Origin: an uncultured Acidobacteriota bacterium
GTDB taxonomy: Bacteria; Acidobacteriota; Blastocatellia; RBC074
DNA length: 64,000 nt
NCBI GenBank assembly: GCA_963796275.1
Contig: CAWCKY010000006.1
Location: 672,001-736,000, forward strand
Reading direction: 5' to 3'
The notes beneath the pieces were generated by a model. It did not search any database. It was not told the origin of the DNA and saw nothing but the letters and a program-made list of their open reading frames with translations. Within the stretch, counting starts at the first letter, position 1, and every line of letters begins with the position of its first letter. Made by a program: the position numbers and the translations under genes. This document shows positions 53,562 to 63,216 of the stretch, piece by piece.

Positions 53562-54380
53562 ATGATAAAAGATGTCTTTGCATCGATCTGGGCGGCGGCG
53601 CGCAAGATAATTACCAACTGGGGCGCATTATTAATTTCGTTTCTCCTCTATGCGGCCTTGCAAAGCGTGCTTTATCTGCTCATCACGACGCGCGAAGCGA
53701 CGCTGCTCCAAATATTATTGACTTTCGCTCTGCCGCTGGTCGCGCTCATCCTATTTTTCACACTTCAGGCGTTGGGGCTGAGTTATATACGAATCGGAGT
53801 CGGACCCGGGTACCTGCTGAAGCGCGCATTGAAGGACTGCTGGAAGCTGTTGTTAATGAGCGTTCCCCTGATATTGCTAGCTTGGCTGATCATTTACTCA
53901 ATCGGTACAACCGAAAACCGTCTATTGAATCAGATCTCCGACGCCGCCCAGGCATCGGGGAGGTGGAAGTTGACGGCACTCAACTGGGCTCGCATGTTCC
54001 TGCTCTATTTCGCGCTACCCCTGATCGCGATTCATCTATGGATATCGACACTGCACGAAGGTGTCGGCGCCGCCATCAAAAGCATCGGGCGCAGCGTCGC
54101 TCGCGCATTCTCGCCGCGATCAATGTTAATTTACCTGCTGGTCGTCGCAGTATTCGGTGCCATATCATATTTCCTGTTCTTCACCAAAACGCCGGTTGCC
54201 AATCAATGGGCGGAGTTGTGGTTGTTCGGCACGCGATTGGCCATGGCATTGGTATCCGTATTTCTGGGATGGCTGCTCACTCTGGGATCGCTGGCGGAGT
54301 TGACGGCCCATTGGGCAATGAGCGAATTGGAATCCGTGCCGCGAGCAGTAACCGGCGAGTCTTCAGCGTCGACCGAATAA
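53562..54380 (+). CDS. Multi-pass membrane protein of unknown function
   Basis: About six hydrophobic helices; operon position; stop overlaps the next ATG. Confidence 0.7.
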   Translation: MIKDVFASIWAAARKIITNWGALLISFLLYAALQSVLYLLITTREATLLQILLTFALPLVALILFFTLQALGLSYIRIGVGPGYLLKRALKDCWKLLLMSVPLILLAWLIIYSIGTTENRLLNQISDAAQASGRWKLTALNWARMFLLYFALPLIAIHLWISTLHEGVGAAIKSIGRSVARAFSPRSMLIYLLVVAVFGAISYFLFFTKTPVANQWAELWLFGTRLAMALVSVFLGWLLTLGSLAELTAHWAMSELESVPRAVTGESSASTE

Positions 54381-57121
54381 TGAAACGCGCGATAGGCATC
54401 AAGAAAATAAGTAATGAGCTCAAGGCGCCGGAGGCGCATCCCGCCAGGGGTATCTGCTGGGTTTATATCACAGGATATATCCTGGGCATTTTTCTTCTGT
54501 CATCGTGTGCGAAGCATGAACCTTCACCACCCACATTTTCACGCGATTCCGCGGGTGATAACGATGATTCGCTGCAAAAAGCCGCAACCGACGCACTCGG
54601 TGATCGGGAAGGCGCGGTAATCGTTATCGACCCGAACACCGGTCGATTGCATGCAGTCGTCAACCCACGCCTGGCTTTCGAACAAGCCTTTCCTCCCGGT
54701 TCGGCTATTAAGCCTTTTACGGCGCTCTCCGCCATGCGTGCCGGGTTAGTTGACCGCGGAACTGCCCACTTGTGCCGGACGCGCTATGAACGTGGAGGAT
54801 TTACGATCGTCTGCGCTCACCGGCGAAGCGCCTCGCCATTCGATCTGCCGCATGCCCTGGCATACTCCTGCAACGATTATTTCGCGCAGGTCGGCGAGCG
54901 CCTGAGCCAGGGCACGTTCAATGCGACGCTCAACCGTTTCGGCTTCGGCGCGCGCACCGGCGTGAGCGCCAACGAGGCGGCAGGCGTCCTGCCGCGCGGC
55001 GAATGGCATGTCGCCTCGGCGCTCGGCGAAAGCGAGAGCCTGTTAGTTACGCCGATCCAGTTGATGGCTGCTTACACCGCGCTCGTCAACGGCGGCCGCC
55101 TCTACCGCCCGCAGGTCAGAAACAGGCGGGATGTACTTCCATCGGCTCATCTGAACATCGTCCCGATACACCGCGCCGCACTGATCGAGGGAATGCGCGG
55201 CGCGGTGAAATACGGGACAGCTGGGACAGCCGGGCTCGGGAGATTGCCGTCATATGTTTTCGGCAAGACCGGGACCTCGACATCGAGCAACGGTTTCCGG
55301 ACACAGGGCTGGTTTGTCGGTTTTTTAGCTGATGGTGATTCAGCCGAAGCTCCGCGCGAAGATCAAATCAGGCTCGGCGTACTGGTTTTTCTCAAACGGG
55401 CGCACGGATCACAATGCGCAGAAGTGGCGGGAAAGATTTTCGATTACGGATTGCGGATTGACGGCTTGGGAGAAAAAGATGCGGGAAAGGGGAGTCGGGG
55501 CGATGAAATAAATTCGCCCAGTCGTGCGGTCGCTTCCAGTCCGCCATTCGCTATCCACCATCCTCAAACAGTAAGTGTTCGTTCGATCAGCGAGAAGCTC
55601 ACGCGCGAGCTGCCATTGGAGGAGTACCTCATTGGAGTGCTCGAAGCCGAATCCGGCGTGGAAGTCGAGCCCGAGGCTTTGAAAGCGCAGGCCGTCATCA
55701 GCCGGACTTTCGCGCTGAGGAATACCGGGCGACACGAGCGCGAAGGATACGATTTTTGCAGCACGACGCATTGTCAGCGCTTCGTCTACTCAAAAAAACA
55801 ATCGAACTCAGCGCGCCGTCGCGCCGTCGAAGAGACTATGGGTGAAGTCCTGCAGGATGGGATGGGCCAACTCGTCGACGCATACTTTCATGCTGCCTGC
55901 GGAGGTGTGACGGCGAATATCCGGGCATTGTGGGGCAGTCCCTCGCCTTCTTACCTGCGCGGCGTGCGCGATGATTTCTGCGCGACGATGCCGCATTATC
56001 GCTGGACACAGACTATTCCGGCCGCGCAGTTGGTTAAAGCGTTGAAGAGCGATGCGCGCACGGACATCGGACCGGAGATCAATGCGATTCTCGTCAGGAA
56101 ACGCGACGCGACGGGAAGGGCCGAGTTGCTCGCACTCGAGGGGGTGCGCCGCCGTCTTGTCAGTGGATGGGATTTCAAGATTATCGTCGGTCGCAGCCTG
56201 GGGTGGCAGATGATCAAGAGCTCTCGTTTTGATGTCTCGCGTTCAGGCGGAGACTTCGTCTTCCGCGGCAGCGGCTTCGGTCACGGTTTGGGTTTGTGCC
56301 AGGAAGGCGCCCACGCCATGGCGAGCCGCGGGATGAATTATCGGCAGATCCTCAAGCATTATTTTCCCGGCACACGGGGAATGCGCGACATGCGGAGCAG
56401 ACGAAGCATGCTGGACGGCAAAGACATGCGGGACACGATGAAATTGTTGGTGAGTTTCCCGGGTGGTCCCGTATCCGGGGATGCTGGAATAATCGACCGG
56501 AAATCGCAAAGGGGAAGTTGGAAACTGATAGCGAGCGAGAACTTTCGTGCGAGTTTCTCCCGTGAGGCAGATAGGCGATCGGTTGAAAATGTATTACGGC
56601 TGCTTGAAGCCGCGCGCACAGACCTGTTAAATCGGCTGCAAATGGCGTCGGTCCAATTGCAGGAATCGAAACCATTCGAGGTTGTGATTCACGAAACCAC
56701 GGCAGATTTCATCACCGCTACCGGTCAATCGGGACTGGCCGCCGGAGCGACGCGTGAAAGGCGAATCGAGTTGCAGCCCTTGACCATCCTAAGGAGGCGC
56801 GGCATTCTCGATTCGACCCTGCGTCATGAATTGGCGCACGCTGTCATTGAAGTATTGAGCGATGGCCGCGCGCCCCGCTGGTTGTCGGAAGGTTTGGCGA
56901 TCTACGTCGCGGGTGAAGGCGCAGCGATGTCGCGCATCGCCGAAAAACAGCGGCTAACGCGCGAGGAATTGGAACGGAAGCTATCGCGGCCCGCTCCGGC
57001 AAAGGTCATGCGCGAATTGTACGCGGCGGCATATCGCCAGGTCATAGCTATGATTCGGTCGGAGGGTGAAGATATCGTCTGGCGGCTCGTAGCTGAAGCG
57101 CGTAATTCGTCCCTGGTTTAA
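54380..57121 (+). CDS. Fusion lipoprotein: PBP transpeptidase + SpoIID/LytB + HExxH metallopeptidase-like domain
   Basis: SAIK, SCN and KTG motifs; EEYLIGVLEAE, EALKAQAV, CSTTHCQ, GFGHGLGLCQ, ILKHYFPG; RHELAH..WLSEG; TAATG coupling at 54378-54382. Confidence 0.85.
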   Translation: MKRAIGIKKISNELKAPEAHPARGICWVYITGYILGIFLLSSCAKHEPSPPTFSRDSAGDNDDSLQKAATDALGDREGAVIVIDPNTGRLHAVVNPRLAFEQAFPPGSAIKPFTALSAMRAGLVDRGTAHLCRTRYERGGFTIVCAHRRSASPFDLPHALAYSCNDYFAQVGERLSQGTFNATLNRFGFGARTGVSANEAAGVLPRGEWHVASALGESESLLVTPIQLMAAYTALVNGGRLYRPQVRNRRDVLPSAHLNIVPIHRAALIEGMRGAVKYGTAGTAGLGRLPSYVFGKTGTSTSSNGFRTQGWFVGFLADGDSAEAPREDQIRLGVLVFLKRAHGSQCAEVAGKIFDYGLRIDGLGEKDAGKGSRGDEINSPSRAVASSPPFAIHHPQTVSVRSISEKLTRELPLEEYLIGVLEAESGVEVEPEALKAQAVISRTFALRNTGRHEREGYDFCSTTHCQRFVYSKKQSNSARRRAVEETMGEVLQDGMGQLVDAYFHAACGGVTANIRALWGSPSPSYLRGVRDDFCATMPHYRWTQTIPAAQLVKALKSDARTDIGPEINAILVRKRDATGRAELLALEGVRRRLVSGWDFKIIVGRSLGWQMIKSSRFDVSRSGGDFVFRGSGFGHGLGLCQEGAHAMASRGMNYRQILKHYFPGTRGMRDMRSRRSMLDGKDMRDTMKLLVSFPGGPVSGDAGIIDRKSQRGSWKLIASENFRASFSREADRRSVENVLRLLEAARTDLLNRLQMASVQLQESKPFEVVIHETTADFITATGQSGLAAGATRERRIELQPLTILRRRGILDSTLRHELAHAVIEVLSDGRAPRWLSEGLAIYVAGEGAAMSRIAEKQRLTREELERKLSRPAPAKVMRELYAAAYRQVIAMIRSEGEDIVWRLVAEARNSSLV

Positions 57122-57123
57122 GC

Positions 57124-57333
57124 ATGAATAATACGGATGACGAAGATGAGAATACGCAGACTACCATTAACACGACTGCATACCGCCCGCCCGAGGAGAT
57201 CGCCGCTGACGAGTTGCGCTGCGTGCAGTGCGGTGCTCCCGTGCCGAATATAGCGTGCGGACGGATCATGCCATGTCGATCGTGCGGGTTTCCCTATCCT
57301 TTGGGCGATTGCTCGGATTATGCGGAAAATTGA
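57124..57333 (+). CDS. Small Cys-rich zinc-ribbon-like protein
   Basis: CVQCG...CGRIMPCRSCG...C; starts 2 nt after the preceding stop. Confidence 0.6.
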   Translation: MNNTDDEDENTQTTINTTAYRPPEEIAADELRCVQCGAPVPNIACGRIMPCRSCGFPYPLGDCSDYAEN

Positions 57334-57443
57334 TCCTGCCTGAATTTGTTCTGAGAGATCAGCCAGCAGCGTTCAACAGCCATCAAAAAGCGACCTGATG
57401 CCTCCCGATAAGCTTGACTGAACAATCCTAGCTTTGAAATACA

Positions 57444-57473
57444 TTGACAATCCCACAGCAAGCCGTGTATAAA
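57444..57473 (+). promoter_or_regulatory. Candidate sigma-70 promoter for the cys leader and operon
   Basis: Perfect TTGACA, 18-bp spacer, TATAAA. Confidence 0.5.
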
Positions 57474-57674
57474 GACCCTCTTGTGTAGAAATGAGACGAT
57501 ACTTTCTTGAAAAGTACCGAACAAACATAAAAGAACAGATACTGAAGAACAGATACTGAAGACACGAACACATAATGACAAACTACACAAGATACGAATA
57601 CACGAGTAACGAATATAAGAATATAAGAAGTTACGAAAACAGAAGTAACGAATACAGAAGAAAGCAGGTATAAA

Positions 57675-57821
57675 ATGTCACGATCAACGCGATCAGAAAG
57701 ACTAATGCTCTTACCTGATACAGGGCTTAGTAGACGGCCCGCAGAATTCTCTTTTAGTCTCACCTCGATTCTTTCCTGCCAAATCGCCTGCTCCTGTTGT
57801 TGCTGCTGTTGTTGTCGCTAG
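57675..57821 (+). CDS. Poly-cysteine leader peptide (48 aa), candidate attenuator of the cys operon
   Basis: MSRSTRSERLMLLPDTGLSRRPAEFSFSLTSILSCQIACSCCCCCCCR*, translated by hand; seven consecutive TGT/TGC codons; AGGT before the ATG; 158 nt upstream of sir. Confidence 0.8.
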   Translation: MSRSTRSERLMLLPDTGLSRRPAEFSFSLTSILSCQIACSCCCCCCCR

Positions 57822-57825
57822 CCTC

Positions 57826-57854
57826 TCGATTGCAGTTCATATTTCTGCAATCGA
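57826..57854 (+). promoter_or_regulatory. Hairpin immediately after the leader stop codon
   Basis: Perfect 10-bp stem TCGATTGCAG/CTGCAATCGA, 9-nt loop, no U-tract. Confidence 0.55.
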
Positions 57855-57979
57855 TCTCAATCCCAAAAAATTAACTAACTTAAGTTTGCCGGTTGAATTG
57901 TATTCGATCAGGTGAGCAGGTTCAGAATGCAGCCTTTAATTGGTTGCCGAATCGCGTATTCGCGTTTGCGGAGACGACT

Positions 57980-59566
57980 ATGAAAGAGAACAAGGTCGAA
58001 CGACTGAAAATTGAAAAAGACGGCCTCGACGTGTGGCAGGACATTGAGCGTTATGCGCAAACGGGATTCGACACGATCGATCCCGGCGACATGGATCGCT
58101 TCAAGTGGTATGGCCTTTATACCCAGCGACCCGTGGAAGACGGTCGCTTCATGATGCGCGTAAAGGTGCCCAATGGAATCATCAGCGCCGAGCAGCTCGC
58201 GACTATCGGCTGGCTTTCACAGGTTTATGGACATTCCACCGGAGATATCACGACGCGACAGGGAATTCAGATTCACCATCTGCGCATCGAAGATATTCCG
58301 CATGCCATCAACGAATTGAAGAAGGTCTCCCTAACCACGCAGGAGGCCTGCGGCGATGTCGTACGCAATGTCGTCGGGTGCCCGCTGGCGGGGATCGATG
58401 ACAATGAGATCATCGACGCCTCGCAACTGGTGGATCAGGTTGTAAAACAGTTCATCGACAACCGCGATTTTTCTAACCTGCCGCGCAAATTCAAAATTTC
58501 CATCACCGGCTGCACCCATCAATGCGCGCAACACGAGATCAACGACGTCGGCCTGGTCGCCGTCACCAATAATGATGGGGAGGTCGGGTTCGATCTCTGG
58601 GTCGGCGGCGGACTCGGCGCGAAGCCGTATCTGGCCAAACGTCTCGGGGTCTTCGTCTGGTACGACGAAGCGGTCGAGGTCATCACGCGCATCGTCGAAA
58701 TCTTCCGCGACCACGGTTACCGGGACGACCGGCGCAAGGCGCGTCTGAAGTTTCTGGTAGCCGATTGGGGCGTTGAAAAGTTCCGCGATGAGCTCGAATT
58801 ACGGTTGGGACGCAAGCTCGATGACGGTCCTCAAACAGATGTTCCTGAAATTCAAAAACGCGATCACACAGGCGTCTATGAACAGCGCCAGTATGGGCTG
58901 TATTACATCGGCGCGGCTGTGCTGCGCGGCCGGATTTCAGGCGAGCAGATGAGCGCGGTAGCGGGACTGGCTCGGCGTTATGCGAACGGGCGCATTAGAT
59001 TGACCAACGCACAGAATCTGATCGTGCTCGACGTGCCGGCGGAAAACATCGTTACGCTGAGCAACGAGCTGGCACTGCTCGGTCTCGATCCTTATGGCTC
59101 GCCATTTCGCCGCGGTACGGTCTCGTGCACGGGCCGCCAGTTCTGTAAGCTGGCCGTCGTCGAGACCAAAGAGCGCGCAGAGGAGATCATTCTTTACCTG
59201 GAGCAGACTAACCCGGATTTCAGCGATGACATCCGCATCAGCGTGACCGGCTGCGTCAATTCGTGTGCGCAGTATCAGATCGCCGATATCGGCCTGGTCG
59301 GGGTGAAAGGGCAGGAGAATGGGGCAGAAGTCGACTTTTTCCAGGTCCACCTCGGCGGGCATCTGGGGCAGGGAGCGGCGTTCGGGAGAAAAATCTCCAA
59401 ACGCGTCCGGGTCGAGGAGACCAAATTTTATATCGAGCGGGTTCTCCGCACTTACCGTTCGCAGCGGCGGGCGGGAGAACTGTTCTATCAGTTCATCGCG
59501 CGCCACGATGCGAGAGCATTGGAGATGATCGATGAGCTGGAGAGCGTAGAGATGGCCGCTGTATAA
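57980..59566 (+). CDS. sir: Ferredoxin-dependent sulfite (nitrite/sulfite family) reductase
   Basis: KWYGLYTQR, ITTRQ, LPRKFK, CTGRQFC, TGCVNSC siroheme/4Fe-4S ligands; sulfite specificity inferred from operon context. Confidence 0.88.
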   Translation: MKENKVERLKIEKDGLDVWQDIERYAQTGFDTIDPGDMDRFKWYGLYTQRPVEDGRFMMRVKVPNGIISAEQLATIGWLSQVYGHSTGDITTRQGIQIHHLRIEDIPHAINELKKVSLTTQEACGDVVRNVVGCPLAGIDDNEIIDASQLVDQVVKQFIDNRDFSNLPRKFKISITGCTHQCAQHEINDVGLVAVTNNDGEVGFDLWVGGGLGAKPYLAKRLGVFVWYDEAVEVITRIVEIFRDHGYRDDRRKARLKFLVADWGVEKFRDELELRLGRKLDDGPQTDVPEIQKRDHTGVYEQRQYGLYYIGAAVLRGRISGEQMSAVAGLARRYANGRIRLTNAQNLIVLDVPAENIVTLSNELALLGLDPYGSPFRRGTVSCTGRQFCKLAVVETKERAEEIILYLEQTNPDFSDDIRISVTGCVNSCAQYQIADIGLVGVKGQENGAEVDFFQVHLGGHLGQGAAFGRKISKRVRVEETKFYIERVLRTYRSQRRAGELFYQFIARHDARALEMIDELESVEMAAV

Positions 59567-59692: not shown

Positions 59693-60856
59693 ATGAGTTT
59701 AATTGATCCACACGGGGGGAAACTGATTGACCGGGAATTGCGCGGGGCAGAGCGCGAAGCGCTGCTGCGAGCATCGGTGAAAATGCCGAGTATTTCGGTC
59801 AACGCACGTGCTGAGGCCGACCTTGAGCTTATCGCATCCGGCGCGCTATCGCCGCTCGAAGGATTTATGGGCGAAGCGGATTACGTTTCGGTCAGAGACA
59901 ACCGGCATCTGGCGAACGGATTGGCCTGGACGATACCCGTCACCTTGTCGGCCACCGATGATGTGAGCGGAACCCTGCACACCGGCGATGATGTTGCTCT
60001 GCGCTCGCGCGATGGGCGATTGGTCGCCGTGCTGCATCTCGCCGAGATTTTCAAATATGACAAAGCGCTCGAAGCCCAGCAGGTGTACCGGACTACCGAA
60101 GAGAAGCATCCAGGCGTGAACGCGATTTATGGGCAGGGCGATTATCTGCTCGGAGGCCGCGTCAGTCTGATCGAAGCGCCGAACCGCCAGGAATTCGGGC
60201 CTTATCGTTTTTCGCCGCGGGAGTTGCGAGCGCTCTTCACCGAGCGGGGTTGGAAGAGCGTCGTCGCCTTTCAGACGCGCAACCCGGTGCATCGGGCGCA
60301 CGAATATATTCAGAAATGCGCGCTTGAGACCGTCGACGGGTTGCTGTTGCACCCCCTCGTGGGCGAGACGAAAGCCGATGATATCCCGGCGCCCGTTCGG
60401 ATGCGGGCATATGAAGTGATCATCGAGCATTACTACCCGGTCTCGCGTACTCAACTGGCCGTGCTGCCGGCTGCGATGCGCTATGCCGGGCCGCGTGAAG
60501 CCATCTTTCACGCGATCATCCGCCAGAACTATGGTTGCTCGCATTTCATCGTCGGGCGCGATCACGCGGGGGTGGGCAATTATTACGGAACATATGACGC
60601 GCAGCGAATCTTCGGCGATTTCGCACCGGGCGAGTTGAAAATCACCCCGATGTTTTTCGACAACACCTTCTTCTGCCGCAAATGCGATGGAATGGCTTCG
60701 GCCAAAACCTGCCCGCACGATCCGGACAATCACGTCAGTTTGAGCGGCACCAAAGTCCGCGAAATGCTGGCGCGCGGAGAAGTACCTCCGTCTGAATTCA
60801 CGAGGCCGGAAGTGGCATCGGTTTTGATCGACGCGCTGAAGGTCGTTGGAGTGTAG
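59693..60856 (+). CDS. sat: Sulfate adenylyltransferase
   Basis: FQTRNPVHRAHE, MRYAGPREA, FIVGRDHAG, SGTKVR. Confidence 0.97.
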   Translation: MSLIDPHGGKLIDRELRGAEREALLRASVKMPSISVNARAEADLELIASGALSPLEGFMGEADYVSVRDNRHLANGLAWTIPVTLSATDDVSGTLHTGDDVALRSRDGRLVAVLHLAEIFKYDKALEAQQVYRTTEEKHPGVNAIYGQGDYLLGGRVSLIEAPNRQEFGPYRFSPRELRALFTERGWKSVVAFQTRNPVHRAHEYIQKCALETVDGLLLHPLVGETKADDIPAPVRMRAYEVIIEHYYPVSRTQLAVLPAAMRYAGPREAIFHAIIRQNYGCSHFIVGRDHAGVGNYYGTYDAQRIFGDFAPGELKITPMFFDNTFFCRKCDGMASAKTCPHDPDNHVSLSGTKVREMLARGEVPPSEFTRPEVASVLIDALKVVGV

Positions 60857-60857
60857 T

Positions 60858-60947
60858 CAGTTTACAGTTTACAGTTTTCAGTTCTTAGCTCTCAGATGCG
60901 AACTAAAAACTAAAAACTGCAAACTGAAAACTGCAAACTGAAAACCG
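60858..60947. repeat. Inverted heptamer-array hairpin between sat and tRNA-Cys
   Basis: (CAGTTTA/CAGTTTT)n ... (AAAAACT/CAAACTG/AAAACTG)n. Confidence 0.8.
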
Positions 60948-60952
60948 AATGG

Positions 60953-61024
60953 GGCGGTGTAGCCAAGTGGTAAGGCGAAGGTCTGCAAAACCTTTATTCG
61001 CCGGTTCGATTCCGGCCGCCGCCT
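60953..61024 (+). tRNA. tRNA-Cys (GCA), CCA not encoded
   Basis: Acceptor GGCGGTG/CGCCGCC with U discriminator; D arm GCC-AAGTGGTAA-GGC; anticodon arm AAGGT-CTGCAAA-ACCTT; T arm GCCGG-TTCGATT-CCGGC. Confidence 0.96.
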
Positions 61025-61051
61025 CTCATTAAGGAATTAAGGAAAGGATCA

Positions 61052-61618
61052 ATGTCAAAAGGTTTTACGCTTTGGTTTACCGGATTATCAGGGGCAGGGA
61101 AGACGACGCTGACAAATGCGATTTTGCCGCATCTGCTCGAGCGAGGCGTCAGGGCCGAAGTTCTTGACGGGGATGAGGTGCGCACCAACCTGAGCAAAGG
61201 GCTCGGGTTTTCCAAAGAAGATCGCGATACCAACATCCGGCGGATCGGTTACGTCGCCCGCTTGCTCTCCCGCAATGGCGTGGGGGTGATTGCGGCGGCA
61301 ATCTCGCCTTACCGCGAAATCCGCGACGAGGTGCGGCGTTCCATCCAGTCAGATGGCGCGGCTTTTGTCGAAATTTATGTCACTGCGTCGCTGGAGGCAT
61401 TGATAGAACGCGACGTGAAGGGGCTGTACAAGAAAGCTCTGGCGGGTGAGATAAAACAGTTCACCGGCGTAAGCGATCCTTACGAACAGCCGAACAATCC
61501 TGAGCTGGTCATCGAAAGCGATAAGGAGACAGTCGCCGAGAGCGCGACGAAGATCATCGTCACTCTCGAGAAGCTCGGGTTGCTGGCATCGAATCAGAAA
61601 TTGGGAGCGATGATATGA
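61052..61618 (+). CDS. cysC: Adenylyl-sulfate kinase
   Basis: [32 protein letters not shown]. Confidence 0.97.
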
Positions 61619-62427
61619 AACGGGGAAAGGTTTATCTGGTTGGCGCGGGGCCGGGCGATCCCGGTCTACTGACGCTCAAGGCGAGAGATCTTATCGCCGC
61701 AGCCGATTGCATCATCTACGACTATCTGGTCAACCCGAAGATTCTGGAACACGCGGGGCCGCGCGCGGAATTTATCTACGTCGGCAAACGCGGGGTGGAG
61801 AGCTCGTGGACGCAGGCTGAGATCAATCGCCTGCTGGTTGAAAAGGCCGGGGAGCATTCAGTAATCGTCCGGCTCAAAGGCGGCGATCCTTTCATTTTCG
61901 GGCGCGGCGGGGAGGAGGCGGAGATGCTGGTCGATTCGGGAGTGGAGTGGGAGGTCGTCCCGGGAGTGACTGCCGGATCATCGGTCGCCGCATACGCGGG
62001 GATACCCATCACGCATCGCGGGTTGAGCAGTTCGGTCGCTTTTGTGACGGGCCACGAAGACCCGGCGAAACCGCAATCGGCGATCCGGTGGGAGCATTTG
62101 GCTAACGGCGTCGATACGCTCGTCTTTTTTATGGGCGTGGCGCGCGCCCGGGAGATCGCGGAACGGCTCGTGGAACACGGCCGCAGTTCTGAAACGCCCG
62201 TCGCTGTAGTCCGCTGGGGAACTTACGATCACCAGGAGACTTACATAACCACGCTCGCAAACCTGGCGGACCTGACCGCCCGCGAGCAAGTCGCTTCGCC
62301 CGCGCTTATCGTGGTTGGAGATGTGGTTAAGCTTCATGAGAAGTTGCGGTGGTTTGAGGAACTGAAAGAGGTTCCGTTCGCTCATCGCAACTTCCCTAAT
62401 CCATTTTTGGAGGCGCTGGCGGGATAA
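61615..62427 (+). CDS. cobA: Uroporphyrinogen-III C-methyltransferase
   Basis: [32 protein letters not shown]. Confidence 0.95.
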
Positions 62428-62565: not shown

Positions 62566-63216
62566 ATGCGCTACTACCCTATTTATCTCGACCTGAAAGA
62601 TCGCGCCGTCCTGGTAGTCGGTGGAGGGGCGATCGCTGAAAGCAAAGCGCAGCAACTTAACGAGGCGGGCGCGCGGGTTCGAGTTGTAAGTCCAACGCTT
62701 ACACCGCTGCTTTCCGGATGGGCGGCGCGCGGAGTGATCGAGCATGTTCCCGGCCGCTTCAAAGAGGATGATTTGAAAGATGTTTATCTTGTCATCAGTG
62801 CCGCGGATGATCAGGCGGTAAACGAAGAGGTGGCGCGACTCGCCGCGGAGCTTGGATTGTTGATAAACGTCGTCGATCAGCCCCCGTTGTGCAATTTCAT
62901 TACTCCGGCACTGGTGACGCGCGGCGATCTGCAGGTCAGCGTATCGACCGGAGGAGGCAGCCCATCGCTCGCGCAGCGCGTTAAGCGGGAAGTCGCCGCA
63001 TCGATCGGCGAAGAATACGGCGAGTTGCTCAAAATTGCCGCCGAGATGAGGGTTGATGCGAAACAACGAATACCGGATTTTGAGAGACGGCGCAAAGTTT
63101 TACACGAGTTTGTCGAATCAGAAGCGCTGGATCTGATCCGCGCGGGAAAATACGAAGAGGCTCGTGAGCTCGCGCGTTCGTTATTGGAAGCCAACGGCGT
63201 GCGGACGGTAAGGTAG
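62566..63216 (+). CDS. sirC: Precorrin-2 dehydrogenase / sirohydrochlorin ferrochelatase (CysG N-terminal/SirC-like)
   Basis: YYPIYLDL, VVGGGAIA, NVVDQP..C.F..PA, STGGGSP. Confidence 0.88.
   Translation: MRYYPIYLDLKDRAVLVVGGGAIAESKAQQLNEAGARVRVVSPTLTPLLSGWAARGVIEHVPGRFKEDDLKDVYLVISAADDQAVNEEVARLAAELGLLINVVDQPPLCNFITPALVTRGDLQVSVSTGGGSPSLAQRVKREVAASIGEEYGELLKIAAEMRVDAKQRIPDFERRRKVLHEFVESEALDLIRAGKYEEARELARSLLEANGVRTVR

Follow-up and report, generated by a model that had tools for sequence, protein, structure and literature searches.

A conserved polycysteine leader reading frame before the sulfate assimilation operon of Blastocatellia is very probably a cysteine sensor

Sulfur assimilation is controlled by CysB in Proteobacteria, by CymR, S-box or T-box elements in Firmicutes, and by polycysteine short open reading frames (sORFs) in mycobacteria. 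The Acidobacteriota are a dominant, mostly uncultured phylum of soil bacteria. Here we describe a 48-codon leader open reading frame (ORF) that ends in a run of cysteine codons and precedes sir, the first gene of a sulfate assimilation operon, in an uncultured Acidobacteriota bacterium of the Blastocatellia. The ORF is located in a stretch of 64,000 nucleotides of contig CAWCKY010000006.1 (positions 672,001 to 736,000; the window), and coordinates without a prefix are those of the window.

The mycobacterial polycysteine sORFs, such as Ms5788A and Rv2334A, are leaderless and belong to a 'Cys ribulon'; in the portions of Canestrari et al. 2020 that deal with them they attenuate Cys operons, in line with the initial annotation of the window, and those of M. 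smegmatis were shown to be translational attenuators (10.1101/834739). Mycobacterium, Propionibacterium and Bifidobacterium were also predicted to have polycysteine leaders upstream of cys operons; the passages on these leaders report no terminator, propose a role for Rho and name tna as an analogy (PMC1262725). In the Rhodobacterales, the entry for the uORFC-8-2 motif describes an upstream ORF (uORF) before cysS with two tandem Cys codons and a terminator (PMC8632094). Two further papers are relevant: regulatory cysteine codons appear only in a figure legend of a 2026 M. tuberculosis paper (PMC13236596), and PMC2965389 refers to the attenuators of Acidobacteria as unannotated and holds nothing more on the subject. 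Full-text literature searches found nothing on the control of sulfur assimilation in Acidobacteriota and no description of a polycysteine leader for Acidobacteria, in agreement with the initial annotation, which knew of none in this lineage.

The leader described here is genuine and conserved, and it very probably senses cysteine; sensors of this kind are already known. It resembles Ms5788A and Rv2334A, as presented in the sections cited above, in its terminal Cys run (at least two codons), in being an unannotated first cistron of cysteine pathway operons, in the lack of an intrinsic terminator, in the presence of conserved residues other than Cys, and in the occurrence of several loci per genome (here at sir and cysM), with the CysO-CysM-Mec pathway among the mycobacterial targets as well. 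It differs from them in phylum, in its length of 39 to 56 codons, in a spacer of 125 to 302 nt, and in a promoter-like site 67 to 201 nt upstream together with a Shine-Dalgarno (SD)-like motif, which suggest that it is not leaderless; pairing between the Cys tract and the SD of sir is predicted in the minimum free energy (MFE) fold of the window's leader, but is not above background over 16 leaders. With uORFC-8-2 it shares a tandem-Cys uORF read as a ribosome-mediated sensor of Cys-tRNA, whereas that motif, in the account given of it, has two Cys codons and a U-tract terminator and controls a synthetase gene instead of sulfate assimilation (PMC8632094). The form is new: an SD-led ORF of 39 to 56 codons with an N-terminal block, a C-rich tract and a post-stop hairpin and with no terminator, accompanied by a tRNA-Cys gene in the operon and by a sister uORF over the start of cysM, and as far as we found it is unpublished for the phylum. 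A Cys-codon sensor would evidently have arisen again, without a terminator and without leaderless translation.

The leader reading frame and its conservation

The leader ORF extends from an ATG at 57675 to a TAG at 57821 on the forward strand and reads MSRSTRSERLMLLPDTGLSRRPAEFSFSLTSILSCQIACSCCCCCCCR before the stop. Seven of its nine Cys codons are consecutive (57795-57815, TGT TGT TGC TGC TGT TGT TGT) and are followed by CGC and TAG; the extra two, at 57777-57779 and 57789-57791, are within a C-rich tract. The ORF, its nine Cys codons and the run of seven had been pointed out in the initial annotation and were confirmed by the sequence and its conceptual translation. An SD-like AGCAGG is present at 57663-57668, 6 nt 5' of the ATG, and a promoter-like site is found farther upstream (Table 1), so that the ORF appears to be part of a long 5' leader and not of a leaderless mRNA. 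A search of positions 57000-58300 against Rfam in E-value mode produced no match. Among public sequencing runs, none of RNA was listed for the stretch, and those of DNA had only small shares.

The Sir protein was used to search 41 relatives and then all 87 genomes of the family (Blastocatellia); G and L numbers below label genomes and loci, and G000 is the source genome (9.46 Mb). The sir gene was found in 16 of the 87 genomes, and in 14 of these 16 it was preceded by an ATG-to-stop ORF of 39 to 56 codons with three to eight terminal Cys codons, a stop zero or one codon past the run, and a distance of 128 to 341 nt to the sir match. One of the other two (L023, from G055, a metagenome-assembled genome that is 73% complete) carries the run CCCCCMCCRCC followed by a stop, but out of frame with its ATG and W-x-x-S-G-x-S-P block due to a 1-nt length difference with respect to its nearest relatives L008 and L024; it is either an assembly error or a decaying leader. 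The other (L025) has 285 nt to the contig end, too short to judge, and was counted among the 16. A metagenome scan added two further leader versions (L107 and L108) and one identical copy. The test put forward with the initial annotation, a search for in-frame Cys runs with synonymous TGT/TGC variation before related sir genes, thus gave positive results in 14 of 16 family genomes and on two metagenome contigs.

The leader was absent from the outgroup loci that could be examined. Among 66 sir loci labelled as Actinomycetota (about 50% identity), none of the 64 examinable ones (at least 397 nt upstream) had an ORF with a terminal Cys run, one showing an internal CCC; among 77 distant metagenome loci (36-59% identity), none of the 75 examinable ones (at least 220 nt upstream) had a Cys run. 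In total, the leader ORF was found before sir in 0 of 139 examinable outgroup loci. Nine loci from other families of the class included none with a run of four or more Cys codons, and one ends in CCCR and a stop 451 nt upstream. Profiles of both leader groups, when compared with the whole genome using nhmmer, recovered only the window's own copy and bare matches to Cys runs. The poly-Leu and poly-Val frames of the run were considered as well and rejected, as the conserved ATG and the immediate stop are found only in the Cys frame.

Seventeen distinct leaders were compared, seven in group 1 (including that of the window) and ten in group 2, and in every case the ORF is the first cistron before sir. 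The Cys run, an upstream purine-rich motif and a stop at most one codon past the run (16 of 17) are kept, but the central residues of the peptide are not. The run varies from three to eight codons across orthologues and remains in frame over about six genera with differing codon orders, which speaks against a slipped microsatellite, as the initial annotation had argued from the mix of synonymous codons. A TTGACA-N17/18-TATAA(A/G) site lies 67 to 201 nt 5' of the ATG in six of the seven group 1 leaders, and TTGACA...TGTAAA in three of the ten of group 2. In most of the 17, a purine-rich SD-like block of the GAAAGCAGG, GAAAGAGG or AAGGAG kind is located 6 to 12 nt before the ATG. The spacer from the leader stop to the sir ATG is variable (125 to 302 nt). 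The ribosome-binding site (RBS) of sir is GGAGAYGAYTATG-like in L001, L002, L107 and L108.

A conserved N-terminal block starts at codon 9 to 13, at a fixed distance from the ATG, and exists in two versions. In the ten group 2 leaders it reads W-x-x-S-G-x-S-P, and the codons AGT GGC AGT TCA are nearly invariant at the nucleotide level. In group 1 it reads R-L-P-D in five leaders and a related P-L-L/P-R-D in two; the rare Leu codon TTA is present in all seven and TTA CCT in six (L005 has TTA CTC). A search for a pairing partner of the block in the 5' untranslated region or the spacer of group 1 gave long bulged duplexes at broadly similar distances and no shared helix. A 10-bp match between 57710-57719 and 57907-57916 was taken as chance; it is lost in the nearest relative.

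The remaining common traits are compositional. The leader had been described as pyrimidine-rich at 57747-57780, and this is correct: the 60 nt before the run are 38% C and 15% G in the window and 33-48% C and 7-22% G in all 17 leaders. Pyrimidines account for 45-95% per codon position in the C-rich tract, with 50 of the 51 values at least 55%, and base composition is kept while the amino acids vary. With the 60-nt windows of G000 as the background for all leaders, a caveat of this comparison, the excess of C over G is within the top 0.1-2% in 16 of the 17 (1.2% for the window's leader), L005 being at 7.5%. Cys codons are also used unequally, with a TGT:TGC ratio of 82:41 in the 17 leaders as compared to 1227:2508 (33% TGT) in the long frames of G000. 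This genome has three tRNA-Cys genes, all with the GCA anticodon; therefore, UGU is read by wobble.

Table 1. Features of the polycysteine leader and the operon behind it (window coordinates)
Feature	Position	Strand	Remarks
Promoter-like site	57444..57473	+	Predicted from sequence; TTGACA 57444-57449, 18-nt spacer, TATAAA 57468-57473; about 200 nt 5' of leader ATG
5' untranslated stretch	57480..57674	+	Long, A-rich, repetitive; ends in purine-rich SD-like motif
Leader ORF	57675..57821	+	48 codons; ends CCCCCCC-R-stop
N-terminal block	57708..57719	+	CTC TTA CCT GAT (L-L-P-D)
C-rich, G-poor tract in leader ORF	57735..57794	+	Candidate rut site or anti-SD reservoir
Seven-Cys-codon run	57795..57815	+	Proposed stall site
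Hairpin H1	57826..57854	+	10 bp, 9-nt loop, 4 nt 3' of stop, no U-tract
Hairpin H2, in spacer	57884..57917	+	Folding compared with shuffles
sir ribosome-binding site	57970..57982	+	GGAG 57970-57973, ATG 57980-57982
sir, ferredoxin-type sulfite reductase	57980..59566	+	Pfam NIR_SIR: PF01077, PF03460
sat, ATP sulfurylase	59693..60856	+	Pfam ATP-sulfurylase
tRNA-Cys (GCA), between sat and cysC	60953..61025	+	tRNA gene detection
cysC, APS kinase	61052..61618	+	Pfam
cobA	61615..62427	+	Pfam TP_methylase
sirC	62566..63216	+	Pfam NAD_binding_7/CysG
cysH	from 63218 (cysC-cysH block ends 63991)	+	Pfam PAPS_reduct

From a proposed ribosome stall to the operon

The run of cognate codons ends the first cistron before the operon of the pathway, has stayed in frame as the remainder of the peptide changed, and is biased toward the slower codon. 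Because of this combination, the leader is likely to be a ribosome-mediated cysteine sensor, as initially suggested, and its conservation in the family, set against its absence from the outgroup loci, supports this view. Further support is provided by a second polycysteine uORF of the same genome, at cysM-mec-cysO/moeZ. From these sequence data we infer that the leader is translated and that stalling on it switches the operon on, and we propose that being translated is the sole role of the 48-codon peptide. Transcription would start at the promoter-like site, and ribosomes would load at the SD-like motif and read the leader. When Cys-tRNA(Cys) is scarce, a ribosome would wait in the seven-codon run, mostly wobble-read UGU, just before the stop; when cysteine is plentiful, it would terminate and depart. 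The waiting ribosome would turn on sir-sat-tRNA(Cys)-cysC-cobA-sirC-cysH.

The leader of the tnaC-tnaA operon of E. coli is a Rho-dependent leader-peptide attenuator. If the leader is a sensor, an output of this kind is our tentative choice, because no conserved terminator is seen, all leaders maintain the C-rich, G-poor tract, the spacer has a long and variable length, and a rho gene is present in the genome. The C-rich, G-poor tract, in the 3' part of the leader, would be hidden under the stalled ribosome and any that queue up after it, leaving Rho unable to load and hence to stop RNA polymerase in the untranslated spacer. After normal termination the tract would be naked and Rho would abort the transcript. 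As in tnaC, about 200 nt of spacer that lack an intrinsic terminator follow the leader ORF, a C-rich tract lies beside the leader stop (here by composition only), and Rho is proposed to be excluded by a ribosome arrested where the leader ends. TnaC detects free tryptophan by means of its nascent peptide, with the ribosome at the stop codon; the present leader would instead sense the supply of Cys-tRNA at a hungry codon.

The folding of the region was also analyzed. The initial annotation mentioned a perfect 10-bp hairpin that starts 4 nt past the stop and lacks a U-tract. This hairpin, H1, is as described: its arms (57826-57835 and 57845-57854) fold with -14.4 kcal/mol (z = -5.8), and 0 of 200 shuffles were as good. 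A second one, H2, reaches -14.1 kcal/mol (z = -4.0; none of 200 shuffles matched it) and is retained in group 1 with two compensatory pairs (RNAalifold, columns 236-265). Hairpins 4 to 10 nt past the stop are found in all seven group 1 leaders, with differing sequences and z values of -1.2 to -5.0; those of group 2 are weak or inconsistent. The imperfect hairpin that had been placed over the sir SD (57947-57971) did not hold up, since it is a weak local fold (-13.7 kcal/mol, z = -1.1) that 27 of 200 shuffles equalled. RNAalifold detected essentially no consensus structure in eight group 2 leaders (three pairs). No conserved alternative pairing of the antiterminator type was found in the MFE, RNAalifold or ribosome-masked folds. 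The comparison of folds with and without the ribosome-covered segment, which the initial annotation had advised, gave no consistent switch when whole leaders were folded at equilibrium with the ribosome masked. A relay of weak helices (3' arm of H1 with 57925-57932, 57930-57935 with 57942-57947, and 57941-57949 with the SD) was considered and dropped, with only seven sequences at hand.

Three of the alternatives differ from the proposed mechanism in what the ORF or the hairpin is. That the ORF is without function and arose by chance over a slipped TGY/CTG repeat is very unlikely in view of the comparative data, and this is the least probable reading of all. The run is indeed a simple repeat, and the third of the only three runs of at least six Cys codons in G000 (six frames, 9.46 Mb; two of them reach at least seven) consists of seven codons (C6:907439-907459, L187, YCYCYYCCCCCCC before the stop) with neither an in-frame start nor a sulfur gene nearby, probably a plain low-complexity repeat between genes. 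The other two runs, however, sit at cysteine pathway genes, the sir leader and the cysM uORF, and the in-frame conservation with differing codon orders and the empty outgroup loci speak against chance. Alternatively, the product of the ORF could be a small, Cys-rich protein with a function of its own, for example in buffering thiols or metals or in carrying sulfur, that is co-expressed with the operon. The conserved N-terminal block and a length of 39 to 56 codons, which is long for a leader peptide, would fit such a protein, but it is highly improbable: the central part of the peptide varies freely with only its base composition preserved, the length of the run changes, the near invariance of the block at the nucleotide level (AGT GGC AGT TCA; TTA CCT) makes RNA at least as likely as peptide to be its target, no word-sharing protein was found among those of 26 to 84 residues, the only lengths searched, in 5.8 billion clusters, and the ORF is always the first cistron before sir. 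In a classical attenuator of the trp/his type, H1 or another spacer hairpin would be an intrinsic terminator with a poor U-tract. The leader does resemble trpL, hisL, leuL, thrL, pheL and ilvL as a short ORF with a run of end-product codons between the promoter and the first gene, a strong hairpin directly follows it, and canonical U-tracts are apparently uncommon in the window. It is two to three times longer than those leaders, however, and unlike them has no conserved terminator/antiterminator pair. A hairpin followed by a U-tract is absent from the window's leader, three of the 17 leaders having one weak site each at non-homologous places, and the 3' arm of H1 has no conserved partner for a downstream terminator in the group 1 spacers, which were read individually, or in their RNAalifold consensus. 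The logic of H1 would also be inverted. The ribosome reaches about 12-13 nt past its A-site codon. Whichever Cys codon of the run occupies the A site, it would extend at most to the foot of H1, while at the stop codon it would open six or seven of the ten H1 pairs; H1 would be intact during starvation and, as a terminator, would close the operon when it is needed, and therefore it is presumably not the terminator of a biosynthetic operon. A trp/his-type device thus appears even less probable than a Cys-rich protein.

The remaining alternative keeps the sensor and places the output in translation. In the free leader the SD of sir would be bound by part of the uORF's 3' end or by the pyrimidine tail that follows H1, and a ribosome on the Cys run would block this pairing so that sir is translated and the mRNA is also protected from Rho. 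Such unmasking was shown experimentally for Ms5788A, according to the account of that sORF (10.1101/834739). RNAalifold predicts one long-range helix in six group 1 leaders, in which YUCC(U)KC (57772-57779) is joined to G(C/A)GGAG at the sir SD; a G-C pair is replaced by U-A in L107 and L108, but this compensatory change counts as one event, since the two are closely related. In the MFE fold of the leader from the window, GCGGAGACGAC is the partner of the last Cys codons. Freeing the 3' part of the uORF lowers the predicted unpaired fraction of the SD in group 2 (from a mean of 0.53 to 0.37, with a decrease in eight of nine leaders), whereas in the window's subgroup the SD is predicted to be about 70% paired at any ribosome position (unpaired fraction 0.27-0.34 throughout). 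UCUC, UUUCC and UUCCC motifs are found 3' of H1 in most leaders, and in L107 and L108 the SD is predicted to pair with them, yet the predicted partner varies by leader. Over 16 leaders the duplex of the Cys run with the sir RBS was no better than those of other 30-nt windows from the locus concerned (fraction of windows that do equally well 0.04-0.88, median about 0.4), the CU tract was just slightly better than the run (median about 0.19), and the best uORF:RBS duplex wandered from inside the run to 84 nt 5' of it. On balance, SD unmasking is possible and somewhat unlikely.

Given a sensor, the Rho-dependent output is slightly favored over SD unmasking, each of the two falling short of an even chance; the present analyses do not separate them, and they may act jointly, as an untranslated sir would itself invite Rho. 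Several points weigh against our preferred reading. The C-rich tract lies within a translated ORF, its CU-richness could equally serve as an anti-SD, and H1 and H2, stable and partly conserved in the spacers of the window's subgroup, resemble an RNA switch more than a plain landing zone for Rho. The N-terminal block is superfluous to any simple codon-sensor model. Terminator-like sites are not above shuffles in the window (20 found in 20 kb of it, 20.8 expected, no enrichment), and therefore a missing U-tract is less telling than in E. coli. Finally, the 17 leaders, from about six genera and metagenome contigs, are kin, and the counts overstate their independence.

The operon, its tRNA-Cys gene and a second polycysteine reading frame

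Pfam searches confirmed the order sir-sat-cysC-cobA-sirC-cysH directly 3' of the leader, as initially annotated (Table 1). The tRNA-Cys gene inside the operon was absent from the gene list on which that annotation was based, and a long A/T-rich inverted repeat lies 5' of it (about 60856-60945). G002, a genome of the same genus, has a tRNA-Cys gene at the identical place in the operon, and G013 has one 1.3 kb 3' of sat; none was found in eight other operons of the family that were examined. If the tRNA-Cys gene is co-transcribed, a sensor of Cys-tRNA governs the supply of tRNA-Cys. The composition of the operon behind the leader varies: sir-sat-cysC-cobA-sirC-cysH in G008, G021 and G024, sir-cobA-sirC-cysH (without sat and cysC) in G007 and G053, and sir-sat-cysC-cysH in G003 and G058.

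The uORF at cysM (L186:4136-4237, minus strand, corresponding to C6 ~392635-392736 of G000) ends in six Cys codons (CYASTKCCCCCC before the stop) and has a 35-nt overlap with the start of cysM. The ATG of that gene is within the conserved C-Y-A codons of the uORF, 12 to 15 nt before the run. A JAMM/Mec-like gene and then a ThiS-MoeB-like gene follow cysM, an arrangement of the CysO-CysM pathway. A Cys run occupies this place in 23 of the 30 cysM loci of the family that were examined (22 of 29 without the unpublished genome G004), and in the other seven the N-terminus of CysM is shorter. On this uORF a stalled ribosome would sit almost on the cysM start; therefore, its logic would be unlike that of the sir leader. 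Candidate modes of action are occlusion, reinitiation, or a +1 shift at a hungry UGU-U into the cysM frame.

Both loci could be parts of a 'Cys ribulon' of the Blastocatellia composed of two unlike devices, neither with a terminator. At sir, queued ribosomes would block Rho and the N-terminal block would set the loading or the spacing of the queue; in the genus of the window the leader would co-regulate the embedded tRNA-Cys gene, and hence the very tRNA that is sensed; and at cysM the +1 shift would produce CysM when Cys-tRNA is short. Taken as a whole, with all of its parts, this reading is unlikely. The tRNA-Cys gene under a Cys-tRNA sensor and the uORF overlapping the cysM start are two oddities that can be tested. 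The conserved 48-codon first cistron is overlooked by gene callers, and the leader offers a marker of cysteine-regulated operons that can be read from the sequence of metagenome-assembled genomes.

The surroundings of the leader show some additional traits. The gene 5' of it (53882-57121) encodes a 1079-residue protein with a penicillin-binding transpeptidase domain and a SpoIID domain (Pfam). Within the 5' untranslated stretch, about 195 nt from 57480 to 57670 contain short direct repeats (acagatactgaag twice, aatataag twice, and gtaacgaata). These A-rich repeats are particular to the source genome, and the corresponding stretches of the relatives are much shorter. L002 and L107 have instead long, perfect A/T-rich palindromes of ACGAAA-type repeats just 5' of the promoter.

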